Assembly (NCBI GenBank): GCA_942493095.1
Contig: OW818675.1
Coordinates: forward strand, 630,001 to 662,000
Reading direction: 5' to 3'
From: Candidatus Electronema halotolerans
GTDB lineage: Bacteria; Desulfobacterota; Desulfobulbia; Desulfobulbales; Desulfobulbaceae
Length of the DNA stretch: 32,000 nucleotides
Shown here: positions 19,440-24,080 of the stretch, piece after piece
Position numbering within the stretch: the first letter of the stretch is position 1
Layout of the letters: each line of letters begins with the position of its first letter
The notes under the pieces: model-generated
What the model was told of the DNA's origin: nothing
Database searches by the model: none
What the model saw: the letters and a program-made list of their open reading frames with translations, nothing else
Made by a program: the position numbers and the translations under genes

Positions 19440-22400
19440 TTATTTACAGGATAAAAACCTGATCGTGTTTTTCATCTCATCAAGAACTTTAGCAAGCTCT
19501 GTGATGACGGCATCAATATCTTCCTCGCTGGTCTGATGCGACAAGGAAAAGCGCAGTGCGCAGTGCGCCTCCTCTGGACTTTTTCCCATAGCCGTCAACA
19601 CATGCGTTGGCTCTGGTGAACCAGATTTGCAGGCCGATCCTGAAGAAATTGCAATGCCGTGCTGATCAAGGGCTATGACAAGGGACTCTCCCCGAATGCC
19701 CGGAAAAGTCATGTTTAACGTATTCGGCAGCCGACATTGTTGATGGCCGTTGAGCTGCGCTTCAGGCACTATTGTGCTGATGCCTGCTTGCAGACGATCC
19801 CGCAAGACAGTCATTTTTTCCGCATCCTGCAATTGATACCGAGCCAACTCTGCCGCCTTGCCCAAACCAACTATTGCCGGAACATTTTCTGTGCCAGCTC
19901 GCAATTTGCTTTCCTGCTTTCCGCCATGAATAAGCGGCTCTAAGGTGATGCCTTTTTTCACATAAAGCGCGCCAACACCTTTTGGCGCATGGAACTTATG
20001 CCCTGAAAGACTGAGCAAATCAACATCAAGTTCGTTCACATCAACAGGTATTTTACCAATCGCTTGAACTGCATCAGTGTGAAAAAGCACCTTGTGGTGA
20101 TGAGCAATGGCCGCCAGTTCTTTAATCGGCAAGATAGTTCCGACCTCATTATTTGCCATCATGACAGAGACAAGAATGGTTTGGTCGGTAATCGCATTAT
20201 GCAATTGTTCTGGATCAATCCAGCCAGCATTGTCAACAGGCAGAAAGGTGATCTGGAAACCGCAGCGTTGCAAAAATTTGCAGGTTGCCAAAATAGCAGG
20301 ATGCTCAACCGTAGTCGTGATAATATGCCTGCCTTTCTCCTGATAAGCAAATGCTGCGCCTTTTAAGGCAAAGTTATCAGCTTCAGAGCCGCTGCCAGTA
20401 AAAATAATCCGCTGCGGCTTGACATTGATCAGGCGAGCGACCTGCCGCCGGGCATTTTCGACAGCCTCTTTGGCATCACGACCAGCCCGATAAATACTTG
20501 AAGGGTTGCCGTGCTGTTCGCCGTAAAAAGGCAGCATTGCAGCTTTTACAGATTCTGCAACTGCTGTTGTCGCATTATTGTCAAGATAAATACGCCGCTT
20601 GCAGGTTGCTGTCTCCTGCGGCGCAAACAACGAACATGCTTCAGATTTTCTTGCGGTACGTTTTCGAGCCTCTTCTGTTCCGGCTGCAATTTTGACAACT
20701 TCGCAGAGCAAGGCTTTATACACTGGAAAACCGGAAATTTCATCATAATTTGCAAGATCGGTCAACTCATTGACATTTGCCCTCTGCCAAGCCTCTGGCC
20801 CAACCGGCGTGCCGCCGCCCATGTTTGCCTCAATAGCCCCTTGGACTATATCATCTGTGACAACAGCGCGAAACGGAACACTTCCCCTTGGGCTGTGCAC
20901 CTCAACTAAATCGCCGGTTTGAATGCCTCTGGCTTGCGCATCTGCCGTGCTGATCTCGACGCAGGGTTCAGGATTTTCCTTGAGCAAACTGGGAACACCA
21001 TGATGCTGCGAGCGAAAATCTGTATGTGTTCTTGCCCCGGAGTTGAAAACAAGGGGAAAGGAACGGGCCAGTTCCGGGGCTGCCAATGGCCCTTCTTTTG
21101 GTTCCGTATATTTAGGAAGCGGCTCATAACCATACTCAGCAAGCACAGATGAGTAAATTTCAAATTTTCCGCTTGGTGTGTCAAAGCCTGGCTTGCCGTC
21201 CGGCCTGAGCGAGCCTTTTTCCCACTTTCTATATTCCATAGTCGGCGCAGATAATTGCACCATGCCTCCAGCTTTGCGGACTTCTTCCAAGGTGAAGCCG
21301 GAACCTTGCAAGGCAAAACGAATCATCTCTTCTTCTGATTGCGGAAAAAGTTCCCCGTAACCAAGTGTTTTAGCCAATTCCGCCATGATCAGATAATCAT
21401 TTCTCGCCTCGCCGACCGGCTCAATCAGTTTTTCTCGCAGACGAAAAATCGGCCCATAAACCATATAGGAATCTATTTCAAACATGGTGGTCGCAGGCAG
21501 GACAATATCCGCATAGGCCGCGTCTGCGGTGAACTGTCGATCAATACAGACAAGAAAATCAAGTTTGGCTAAGGTTTCCCGCCAGAGCGGAGTCTGCGGC
21601 CAAGAAGTAAGAATCGAGCCGCCGTCAATGATCAAGGCGCGAATCGGGTAGGGTTCTCCTTTGAGCACCGAGTCAACAAGGCCAATGGCATGAGATTCAC
21701 CCCGATATTTGCTGTAGAGCGGAAATGTATCTCTGGCAATCGCCCGGTCAAGTTTTGGATTTTTGAGATTGCAGGAATGGTTGATTGGAAAATGACTGTT
21801 CAGCATTGCCAGACCAATTCCGCCTGGAACGTCAAGCTGGCCAGCCAAGGCCCATGCGGTCAGCACTGCCCGAATAGCCTGAATGCCGCTGTTTGAATAT
21901 TCAAGACCGGTGTACATGACCGGAGCGCAGCCGGAAGCATGGGCGATTTTACGAGCAAGGGTACGAATGGTTTCTGCTGGAACACCCGTTATGAATGCTG
22001 CTGTTTCAGGCCGAAAATGCTGCACATAAGTTTTCAGTTCCGCAAAGCCATGACACCATTTCAAAGCAAAATTTTCATCAAACAGCTCTTCGTCAATGAG
22101 CACCTCGATAATGCTTAACGCCAAGGCTCCATCAGTGCCGGGACGAACAGGAATCCATTGCGCATTTGTCCGCGCAACAGTCTCGGTTCGGCGCGGGTCA
22201 ATAACAACAATTTCCACGCCCCGCTTTGCTGCCGCTTCAAGACGATACATGTCAAGAGGCGGCGAATCTGTGGCAGGATTGGCTCCCCAGACCACGATCA
22301 TTTCCGCATGTTCTATGTCAGTGAACATGTTGATCAGCATTCTGCCCATCGTCAGATGCGGAGCAATCATGGCGAATGAGACATAACAGAGGGCACCCAC

Positions 22401-23072: not shown

Positions 23073-24080
23073 ATGCAGAATATGCACGTAGCTGATAATC
23101 AAAAAAATCGTCTGAATTTTATGACGTTGGAGCAATTTGACAACCATGAGGATTTCAAAAATCATGTGCTGGATGGCTTCCGGTCTGATCCAAAATCACT
23201 TGCAAGTCACTGTTTTTACAACCATGAAGGTTCGTCAATTTTTGACAAAATATGTGCGTTGCCTGAGTACTATCTGACAAGATCAGAAATAGATATCCTT
23301 GAAAACAGGACTGAGGAGATTGTTGCTGAAATCCCTGAAGAGGGAATTATTGCCGAGCTTGGCAATGGAAGCCCTTTAAAAATAAAAAAAATTCTTGACC
23401 GCCTTTTTGAGCGTCAAGAGGATGTTCATTATGCGCCTATAGATATTTCATGCGATTACATGAAAAAAAGTGTTCTGGAGTTAGTTGAAACATACCCAAA
23501 TCTTTCAGTTACCGCGATTGGCGGAAAGTACGAAAGAGGCATCCAGTTTCTGGAAAAAACAGAGACACCTAAAACTATTTTATGGCTCGGTTCAAGTATT
23601 GGTAATATGCCTGACGATGAAGCTGTAAAATTTCTTTCAAGAATCAGCAAGATGATGCGACCAAAAGATTGTTTCATCATTGGAATGGATTTAGAAAAGG
23701 ATTGGGATATGATCAAAGAAGCTTATGATGATCAACAAGGCGTTACTGCTGAATTCAACATGAATATTCTCAAGAGAATAAATGAAGAATTAAAAGCTGA
23801 TTTTGATATTGACTCTTTCAGGCATGATCCAGTGTGCAATATCAAAGAGTCAAGGATGGAATCCTATCTCACCAGCGTTAAAGATCAAAATGTATTTTTA
23901 CGATCTCTTGATTTGAAAATTCCATTTAAAAAGAACGAAAGCGTTCACGTGGAAGTTTCTTGCAAGTATTCAGAGGACAAAATTAAAAGGATGGCAAAAC
24001 AATCTGGTTTGCATCTTGACCGGCAATGGTTTGACAGCAACAAGTGGTTCAGCTTGAATCTTTTCCGAACTGAAAGATAA
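23073..24080 (+). CDS. egtD: L-histidine N-alpha-methyltransferase (EgtD/EanA-type, hercynine-forming)
   Basis: The product aligns block by block with mycobacterial EgtD. Shared blocks are FYNHEGSSIFDKICALPEYYLTRSEIDIL, ELGNGS, YAPIDIS, LWLGSSIGN, IGMDLEKD, AYDDQQGVTAEFNMNILKRINEEL, FRH......SRMESYL and VEVSCKY. An AAGGAG SD at 23061-23066 favours the ATG at 23073 over the ATG at 23055. The gene is markedly AT-rich. Confidence 0.85.
   Translation: MQNMHVADNQKNRLNFMTLEQFDNHEDFKNHVLDGFRSDPKSLASHCFYNHEGSSIFDKICALPEYYLTRSEIDILENRTEEIVAEIPEEGIIAELGNGSPLKIKKILDRLFERQEDVHYAPIDISCDYMKKSVLELVETYPNLSVTAIGGKYERGIQFLEKTETPKTILWLGSSIGNMPDDEAVKFLSRISKMMRPKDCFIIGMDLEKDWDMIKEAYDDQQGVTAEFNMNILKRINEELKADFDIDSFRHDPVCNIKESRMESYLTSVKDQNVFLRSLDLKIPFKKNESVHVEVSCKYSEDKIKRMAKQSGLHLDRQWFDSNKWFSLNLFRTER

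Follow-up and report, generated by a model that had tools for sequence, protein, structure and literature searches.

A predicted two-gene, oxygen-independent route to ergothioneine in Candidatus Electronema halotolerans, a cable bacterium

Introduction

The metallopterin-dependent ergothioneine synthase (MES) was described in 2022 by Beliaeva and Seebeck in JACS Au as a fusion of a molybdenum/tungsten (Mo/W)-pterin enzyme module with a cysteine desulfurase (PMC9516567). Here, we analyze a gene for the same type of fusion protein and the divergently oriented egtD gene next to it, both located in a stretch of 32,000 nucleotides (assembly GCA_942493095.1, contig OW818675.1, positions 630,001 to 662,000 of the forward strand; referred to in the following as the window) from Candidatus Electronema halotolerans, a cable bacterium with a published, closed genome. 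We consider it very likely that this locus provides its host with a two-gene pathway for the antioxidant ergothioneine that would operate without O2.

Four MES homologues (CaMES from Caldithrix abyssi, hvMES, EaMES, AbMES) convert trimethylhistidine (hercynine; TMH) into ergothioneine when they are present in E. coli, and the C-terminal CaMES module is an active cysteine desulfurase on its own (PMC9516567). The catalytic residues that define the family are listed in Table S1 of that study, in CaMES numbering, as Cys153, Lys952, Cys1074, Cys1097 and Cys1135, while the Fe4S4 cysteines of CaMES are Cys14, Cys17, Cys21 and Cys48 (PMC9516567). The K952A, C1074S, C1135S and C153S variants of CaMES have lost ergothioneine production, the C1097S substitution only halves it, and the C1135S exchange causes an approximately 2000-fold loss of activity (PMC9516567). 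Sulfur transfer in CaMES is obligatorily intramolecular, occurring inside one polypeptide, and the metallopterin step is reversible in vivo, as the K952A variant swaps 34S between ergothioneine and TMH; the catalytic cycle was put forward as a tentative proposal (PMC9516567). An earlier reading of the window from its sequence alone (hereafter the sequence-only reading) held that this architecture had been characterized only once, a statement that has to be corrected in view of the four homologues with activity in vivo (PMC9516567).

The routes that depend on EgtB/Egt1 or on EanB lead to the same product and share the EgtD-family first step with the MES route, but their sulfur-transfer enzymes are unrelated to MES: EgtB/Egt1 are non-heme iron sulfoxide synthases that require O2, and EanB is a rhodanese-like protein that uses polysulfide or persulfide on its rhodanese cysteine. 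Homologues of EgtB, EgtC, EgtE or EanB are not encoded within the window.

The Fusion Protein and Its Place in the MES Family

The MES gene of Candidatus E. halotolerans is a single open reading frame (ORF) on the reverse strand (19440-22844) that specifies 1134 amino acids with zero internal stop codons and starts with a TTG codon at 22844, just 5' of which an AAGGAGG sequence is found. An identical protein is present in the databases as CAK8713665.1, a "Cysteine desulfurase [Candidatus Electronema halotolerans]" encoded on a 3.2-Mb contig. The Pfam domains PF04879, PF00384, PF01568 and PF00266 follow one another in this order on the one ORF, giving an Fe4S4- and bis-molybdopterin guanine dinucleotide (bis-MGD)-type enzyme and then a class V desulfurase; the coordinates of all features are compiled in Table 1. 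The desulfurase half passes the NCBIfam model TIGR03402 for NifS (538 bits; cut-off 530.75) and matches cysteine desulfurases in the PDB with values from 1e-113 to 1e-94. The best PDB match for the N-terminal module is acetylene hydratase (2e7z; 3.5e-72), which is also the closest solved structure of the corresponding module of CaMES (PMC9516567), and a polysulfide/thiosulfate reductase ranks second (2vpw; 1.7e-64); the NCBIfam models for Fdh, PhsA and DmsA match the N-terminal half only with scores far below their cut-offs. The sequence-only reading had thus correctly recognized the uninterrupted fusion, the completeness of both modules and the acetylene-hydratase-like character of the first one, and it had placed C15-x2-C18-x3-C22...C48, Lys950, Cys1072, Cys737 and Cys748 accurately.

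The same reading had named an assembly or frameshift artefact as one of the findings that would undo its claim. The fusion is no such artefact, because the full-length architecture occurs at 70% identity or more in over 120 independent protein clusters, and because all 80 MES loci that we retrieved from other species genomes in the GTDB for a survey of gene neighborhoods match over residues ~1-1134.

Comparisons with the four active enzymes support, at the level of sequence, the assignment of the window protein to the MES family. Over its full length, it reaches identities of no less than 65% with hvMES, 59% with CaMES, 56% with EaMES and 55% with AbMES, values that are lower bounds because the reference sequences are noisy, machine-read text from the supporting information of PMC9516567. 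The N-terminal module alone, whose placement rests on comparisons of identities and scores, is 62-71% identical to those of the four active enzymes, whereas its identity to acetylene hydratase, calculated for the 308 best-aligned residues, is only about 36%. CaMES (1136 amino acids) and the protein studied here (1134 amino acids) have the same order of Fe4S4 domain, bis-MGD module, linker and NifS-like domain, both systems are partnered with an egtD gene, and the protein studied here agrees with CaMES and its homologues in the Fe-S cysteines, the metal-ligand cysteine, the pyridoxal 5'-phosphate (PLP) lysine, the persulfide cysteine, the AHC cysteine and the tail cysteine (RF-x-x-C-K/R). The family-defining residues are all present in the alignment with CaMES, hvMES, EaMES and AbMES as Cys153, Lys950, Cys1072, Cys1095 and Cys1133, the CaMES residue numbers having been matched by motif and not by count.

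These residues are conserved far beyond the four reference enzymes. Cys15, Cys18, Cys22, Cys48, Cys153, Lys950 and Cys1072 are invariant across 121 homologues, and both Cys1095 and Cys1133 are present in 120 of them. The C-terminal motif R-F-x-x-C-K/R-COOH is common to all 125 compared sequences except for a truncated one, so that R1129, C1133 and K/R1134 are kept in 124 of the 125, including the four active enzymes.

Acetylene hydratase, a tungsten enzyme of Syntrophotalea acetylenica, and the MES studied here have in common an N-terminal Fe4S4 cluster and a cysteine metal ligand, and both are cytoplasmic and non-respiratory with a single-subunit organization. The Asp residue that adjoins the second Fe-S cysteine of acetylene hydratase is catalytic. 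It stands in the sequence CQSCD, whereas its position is occupied by Pro19 in the protein studied here and by Pro in 124 of the 125 MES sequences. Furthermore, acetylene hydratase is a stand-alone protein of ~730 amino acids that lacks a desulfurase and catalyzes a hydration, in contrast to the C-S bond formation attributed to the fused MES. In view of Pro19 and the fusion to a desulfurase, an assignment to the acetylene hydratase family was rejected.

With class V desulfurases of the NifS/IscS type (H. pylori NifS, 5wt2; E. coli IscS, 1p3w), the C-terminal half shares the SGHK lysine and the cysteine of the SSGSAC loop. It differs from them through its fusion to a Mo/W enzyme and through an additional C-terminal tail with a cysteine that is essential in CaMES. 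While NifS and IscS use diffusible sulfur carriers, the desulfurase of CaMES feeds its sulfur solely to its own N-terminal module.

The two modules are connected by a linker of about 36 amino acids (residues 715-750), the least conserved portion of the protein (7-39% identity to other MES). The sequence-only reading had correctly noted two cysteines in this segment, had underestimated its length at roughly 30 residues, and had suggested that Cys737 and Cys748 act as a persulfide relay. Such a relay is not part of the conserved mechanism, because the linker cysteines are themselves not conserved: the linker measures 30-43 residues across 125 sequences and is free of cysteine in 45 of them, Cys737 is found in 78 of 121 close homologues, the position of Cys748 is mostly occupied by Pro, and, in contrast to the protein studied here, CaMES, hvMES, EaMES, AbMES and the 82%-identical Electrothrix MES contain no linker cysteine at all. 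We therefore rejected the proposed linker relay and regard the linker as most likely a flexible tether. Mutagenesis instead supports the essential Cys1135 of CaMES as the relay residue; its counterpart here is the penultimate Cys1133, which the sequence-only reading had overlooked.

The Partner Protein EgtD

The gene that is read divergently from MES was identified as egtD in the sequence-only reading, and the following results agree with this. The 335-residue protein matches PF10017 (Methyltransf_33) at 1.3e-99 and passes the equivalog model TIGR03438 (321.2 bits; cut-off 290.9), and its closest solved structures are the EgtD proteins of M. tuberculosis and M. smegmatis (6e-56 to 3e-53; 7scf, 6e-56). 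Histidine is bound by M. tuberculosis EgtD through Tyr39, Phe47, Tyr56, Thr163, Asn166, Tyr206, Thr213, Glu282 and Ser284 (PMC8593015); mapped on the alignment with 7scf, eight of these nine residues are identical in the EgtD protein of the window, with Ser in place of Thr163 as the one exception. The previously preferred ATG start codon at 23073 is also the one that we favor, as AAGGAG is located 6 bases upstream of it and the alignment with the 333-amino-acid Electrothrix EgtD begins there; an alternative in-frame ATG further upstream at 23055 is a less likely start, and an exact-sequence look-up gave no record of the longer form.

The EgtD protein is 42% identical to that of C. abyssi. Beyond a few close matches (58-99% identity), which probably stem from other cable bacteria, including one Electrothrix and one second Electronema genome, its nearest relatives are EgtD proteins of Candidatus Scalindua (46-47%). 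Such Scalindua- and C. abyssi-like EgtD proteins are of an anaerobe type, from lineages that are among the MES carriers in the supporting information of the 2022 study (PMC9516567).

Distribution of MES and Its Association with egtD

Matches to MES were confirmed in at least ~588 species-representative genomes of the GTDB, a family considerably larger than the sequence-only reading had implied. Among the MES carriers in Table S1 of the 2022 study are Geobacter, anammox bacteria, Magnetococcus, Desulfomonile and a "Desulfobulbaceae bacterium", and MES was stated to be exclusive to anaerobes (PMC9516567). The labels of MES-bearing metagenome-assembled genomes in our search include Thiobacillus, Ca. 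Thiodiazotropha, Sphingomonadales and Gemmatimonadota, groups that are not usually regarded as strict anaerobes.

In the neighborhood survey of the 80 loci from other genomes, egtD was sought within 8 kb of MES, and the surrounding ORFs were clustered. EgtD emerged from this clustering as the sole recurrent neighbor, and neither a transporter, nor genes for the molybdenum cofactor (Moco), nor a second sulfur carrier was found as a conserved neighbor over the 80 loci.

In public databases, all named MES homologues appear as "IscS/NifS cysteine desulfurase" or as "class V aminotransferase"; a model for MES exists in neither Pfam nor NCBIfam. Because of these names and the lack of a model, ergothioneine capacity that is based on MES is systematically missed in annotation.

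Proposed Pathway and Alternative Explanations

In the pathway that we propose, EgtD would trimethylate the alpha-amino group of L-histidine with three molecules of S-adenosylmethionine to yield hercynine. MES, a cytoplasmic protein that is probably a dimer, would then act as follows. Its PLP-dependent desulfurase, with Lys950, would convert L-cysteine into alanine and leave a persulfide on Cys1072, and this sulfane sulfur would be handed to Cys1133, a residue in the flexible tail at the C-terminus of the same polypeptide. Cys1133 would deliver the sulfur to a reduced Mo(IV) or W(IV) center that is coordinated by bis-MGD and held by Cys153, giving a metal(VI)=S species; attack of the imidazole C2 of TMH on the sulfido ligand would release ergothioneine and return the metal to the +IV state. 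The net reaction, TMH + Cys to ergothioneine + Ala, would be redox-neutral and would need neither O2 nor an external electron acceptor. For the MES of Candidatus E. halotolerans, the steps after hercynine are inferred from the conservation of residues and follow the tentative cycle of PMC9516567; its activity, the metal it uses and the role of its Fe4S4 cluster are to be understood in the same conditional sense.

The sequence-only reading had already proposed an MES-type fusion and an EgtD as an O2-independent two-gene route, and the identities of at least 55-65% to active enzymes, together with the presence of the defining residues, support this proposal. Several observations weigh against it. 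The pairing of MES with egtD is not universal, because egtD lies within 8 kb of MES in only 29 of the 80 other loci, and genes for Moco biosynthesis or for Mo/W uptake are not found within the window. Full-length MES could not be purified in PMC9516567, and for this reason the nature of the metal and of the cofactor, like the catalytic cycle, is a deduction even for the reference enzyme. An AlphaFold2 model of the whole protein, computed from an alignment of 22 sequences, is too poor to judge the reach of the Cys1133 tail (mean predicted local distance difference test score 51; predicted template modeling score 0.35), and cable bacteria are not available in pure culture.

Three alternatives have to be weighed against the two-gene pathway. 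The same chemistry might be put to another use, be it mainly the salvage or exchange of sulfur from imported ergothioneine, the formation of selenoneine from selenocysteine, or the modification of a histidine derivative other than hercynine. In favor of such uses are the reversibility in vivo, as demonstrated by the 34S exchange between ergothioneine and TMH with CaMES K952A (PMC9516567), the closeness of NifS-type enzymes to selenocysteine lyases (PDB 3a9x and 3gzc; SclA model), and the absence of an adjoining egtD from most MES loci. However, an EgtD that is specific for histidine and has its substrate residues intact does adjoin MES here, the pair is kept in three cable-bacterium genomes, the desulfurase lysine and cysteine required for de novo synthesis are intact, and a transporter or a catabolic gene such as that for ergothionase is missing from the window; we hold these other uses to be improbable. 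Still less probable, in our view, is that the fusion has nothing to do with ergothioneine and adjoins egtD by coincidence, being instead a cytoplasmic polysulfide/thiosulfate-reductase-like enzyme that is supplied by a desulfurase of its own, or a sulfurase for Moco or a dithiolene cofactor; this latter variant could conceivably be linked to the nickel cofactor with sulfur ligands in the conductive fibers of cable bacteria. Reductases of the PsrA/PhsA type are indeed the second-best structural relatives (2vpw, 1.7e-64; PhsA model, 265 bits), the public annotation speaks only of a cysteine desulfurase, and in other systems molybdenum cofactors are sulfurated by cysteine desulfurases. Against this stand an N-terminal module that resembles proven MES (62-71% identity) far more than any reductase, the presence of every MES-specific cysteine including that of the tail, and the presence of the gene in hundreds of lineages other than cable bacteria, where EgtD alone recurs as a neighbor. 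A respiratory reductase of the Psr/Phs/Ttr type was rejected, since the score against the PhsA model falls far short of its cut-off of 694 bits, as do those against the Fdh and DmsA models of theirs; moreover, the RR motif of a twin-arginine translocation (Tat) signal is missing from the N-terminus (MNSQHEQLEYRK), and the nearby genes (hisG, engB, egtD and one for a MORN protein) include no PsrB/PsrC-like partner.

The cassette might also have been acquired by horizontal transfer and now be a passenger without function that is poorly expressed or in decay. It is compositionally foreign, with GC contents at third codon positions (GC3) of 0.47 in MES and 0.36 in egtD versus 0.70-0.76 in the flanking host genes; transposase genes lie beside it in Electrothrix, and fragments of insertion sequences (IS) occur elsewhere in the window. 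Both ORFs, however, are intact, are preceded by strong ribosome-binding sites and have kept all catalytic residues. The cassette occupies the same site in a second Electronema species, to which the DNA identities are 78-84% (MES 84%, egtD 78%) and the protein identities are equal or higher (MES 90.6%, HisG 94.5%, EgtD 78%), a pattern that indicates purifying selection on the cassette. We give the passenger explanation hardly any credence, and even when all three alternatives are taken together, it seems rather improbable to us that the answer lies among them and not with the two-gene ergothioneine pathway.

The Divergent Intergenic Region

The AT-rich character of the 228 bp between MES and egtD (22845-23072), remarked upon in the sequence-only reading, is confirmed by a GC content of 36%. 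At a distance of 35-50 bp, egtD is preceded by a perfect 17-bp palindrome (TCCTGTTGACAACAGGA, 23022-23038), 13 nt of which recur in inverted orientation upstream of MES at 22894-22906; both elements overlap a -35-like TTGACA box directed toward the respective gene. With up to three mismatches, the element occurs seven times in the window against an expectation of 0.85 and is hence enriched. A shared operator is possible but unsupported, and a conserved one was rejected, since the palindrome is not kept in the intergenic regions of the sister Electronema or of Electrothrix; for the same reason, we regard it as a local curiosity. Riboswitches or other RNA elements (e.g., responsive to Moco or S-adenosylmethionine) were not detected in the intergenic region, as no Rfam match rose above noise and none reached the gathering score.

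The hairpin downstream of egtD, which we list in Table 1 as its likely terminator, is absent from a consensus terminator scan, and this region as a whole does not exceed shuffled sequences in stability (z = -0.98).

Table 1. Features of the MES/egtD locus. Positions refer to the window; residue numbers refer to the MES protein.
Feature	Position	Strand	Remarks
hisG, ATP phosphoribosyltransferase, long form	18490..19362	-	PF01634/PF08029, TIGR00070; 77 bp downstream of MES
MES gene, 1134 aa, Mo/W-pterin module and cysteine desulfurase fusion	19440..22844	-	TTG start, AAGGAGG Shine-Dalgarno sequence
Molybdop_Fe4S4, residues 11-60	22665..22814	-	PF04879; ligands Cys15, Cys18, Cys22, Cys48
Molybdopterin (bis-MGD-binding), residues 63-492	21369..22658	-	PF00384, 1.5e-41
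Predicted metal ligand Cys153, motif GSPNTMGVGALCY	codon 22386-22388	-	Invariant; aligns with acetylene hydratase Cys in YMCIG
Molydop_binding C-terminal barrel, residues 604-711	20712..21035	-	PF01568, 2.9e-22
Inter-module linker, residues 715-750, with Cys737 and Cys748	20595..20702	-	Low conservation
NifS/IscS-type PLP desulfurase (Aminotran_5), residues 752-1113	19506..20591	-	PF00266, 9e-88
PLP Lys950 (SGHK)	19995-19997	-	Invariant
Persulfide Cys1072 (SSGSAC)	19629-19631	-	Invariant
Conserved Cys1095	19560-19562	-	120/121 homologues
C-terminal tail RFLSCK	19443..19460	-	Penultimate Cys1133 at 19446-19448, predicted to bring persulfide to the metal site as a mobile carrier
Divergent promoter region, 228 bp	22845..23072	.	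36% GC, TTGACA-type -35 boxes directed toward both genes
egtD, L-histidine N-alpha-methyltransferase, 335 aa	23073..24080	+	PF10017, TIGR03438, ATG 23073
Likely intrinsic terminator of egtD, consisting of a long hairpin and UUUUUU after it	24141..24209	+	Minimum free energy and centroid folds

Genomic Context and History of the Cassette

Downstream of MES and on the same strand lies hisG, an arrangement that distinguishes Electronema from the characterized MES systems. The spacer between the two genes (19363-19439) measures 77 bp, compared with 21 bp in the sister Electronema (locus L083, 6274-6294), and the additional 56 bp contain a 7-bp hairpin (GACACAG/CTGTGTC) that is not followed by a U-tract. 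We rejected this hairpin as an intrinsic terminator, given its 7-bp stem, the missing U-tract, and a stability no greater than that of shuffled sequences. Because the spacer lacks a terminator, read-through from MES into hisG is plausible, and the two genes may possibly be co-transcribed. An adjacency of hisG as a general trait of MES loci was likewise rejected: it was found in none of the 80 other loci and not in Electrothrix, being confined to Electronema. hisG is host context and lies outside the mobile cassette.

The second Electronema genome has the identical gene order, engB-hisG-MES<>egtD-MORN, and this shared location indicates that the cassette is older than the split of the two Electronema species. 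In Ca. Electrothrix aestuarii, a divergent MES/egtD pair with a gap of 118 bp (identities of 82% for MES and 61% for EgtD) is flanked by transposase genes and murL, flanks that differ from those in Electronema. The divergent pair is thus kept in three cable-bacterium genomes. In the sister Electronema (L083, 5401-11011, corresponding to 18490-24080 of the window), the GC3 values are 0.50 for hisG, 0.44 for MES and 0.36 for egtD; synteny places the cassette in the common ancestor of the two, yet its GC3 has not risen along with that of the host.

The genes around the cassette in the window are of an ordinary housekeeping kind (epmA, a ThiC-family gene, resB, a multiheme cytochrome gene, yifB, yebC, engB, hisG, genes for the MORN protein, a U32-family protein and a PilC-like protein, guaA and guaB), with a few IS fragments and low-GC ORFs scattered among them. 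Transporter genes, catabolic genes and other genes for ergothioneine metabolism are not among them.

Other Features of the Window

A cobalamin riboswitch (RF00174, 71 bits; 1677-1845, forward strand) lies directly 5' of the ThiC-family radical-SAM gene at 1831-3246, whose product scores above the ThiC equivalog cut-offs and below the BzaB cut-off. Because this gene is under B12 and not under thiamine pyrophosphate control, the data suggest that it encodes a BzaF-type benzimidazole (B12 lower-ligand) synthase and not the ThiC of thiamine synthesis. The best match of a B12-binding radical-SAM gene at 12109-13503 is BzaD, with a score below the cut-off.

Patches of low GC content (0.33-0.41) are present at 8761-10369, 10714-12085 and 14549-16445. 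The first of these contains two ORFs without a match in Pfam or PADLOC and is adjoined by a fragment of an IS66 transposase as well as a gene of the Uma2/PDC-S03 nuclease-like type, beyond which genes for an HNH and DUF3276 protein and a DDE_3 transposase are found; these patches look like remnants of mobile or defense elements. A tRNA-Arg(ACG) gene (27164-27240, reverse strand) overlaps the GTG at 27171 that had been called as the start of the 774-amino-acid U32-family ORF, an overlap that places the true start of this gene further downstream. The U32 protein most resembles O2-independent hydroxylases of the TrhP/UbiU type, with scores below the cut-offs.

Ergothioneine and the Biology of Cable Bacteria

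What is new here is the host and the gap in annotation; the class of enzyme was described in 2022 together with its partner and its residues. The locus opens no new kind of biology, and an uncultured host is a poorer system than CaMES for questions of mechanism. As far as we searched the literature, however, this is the first prediction of ergothioneine synthesis in cable bacteria, uncultured conductive filaments that span oxic and sulfidic sediment, and no link between ergothioneine and the biology of cable bacteria or Desulfobulbaceae was found in that literature. In addition, the ergothioneine capacity of hundreds of environmental lineages is invisible to standard annotation.

The setting differs from that of the characterized enzyme, whose host is an anaerobe of hydrothermal vents; the MES studied here belongs to a sulfide-oxidizing, O2- or nitrate-reducing member of the Desulfobulbaceae. 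In cable bacteria, one end of the filament reduces O2, and it does so in the absence of a conventional terminal oxidase; an O2-independent route to ergothioneine is therefore a reasonable lead for their redox physiology. One may go further and envision ergothioneine made by MES as a metabolite specific to the lifestyle of cable bacteria, for instance as a thiol or redox protectant of the O2-exposed cathodic cells, with its production in Electronema coupled to the supply of histidine through an MES-hisG-engB transcript; we offer this extension tentatively and think it rather unlikely to hold in full. If it were true, the occurrence of MES would extend beyond the strict anaerobes to which the 2022 description limits it (PMC9516567). 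A cable bacterium as host already qualifies the statement that MES occurs only in anaerobes (PMC9516567), and ergothioneine becomes a testable small-molecule candidate for the poorly understood redox and oxidative-stress physiology of these filaments.

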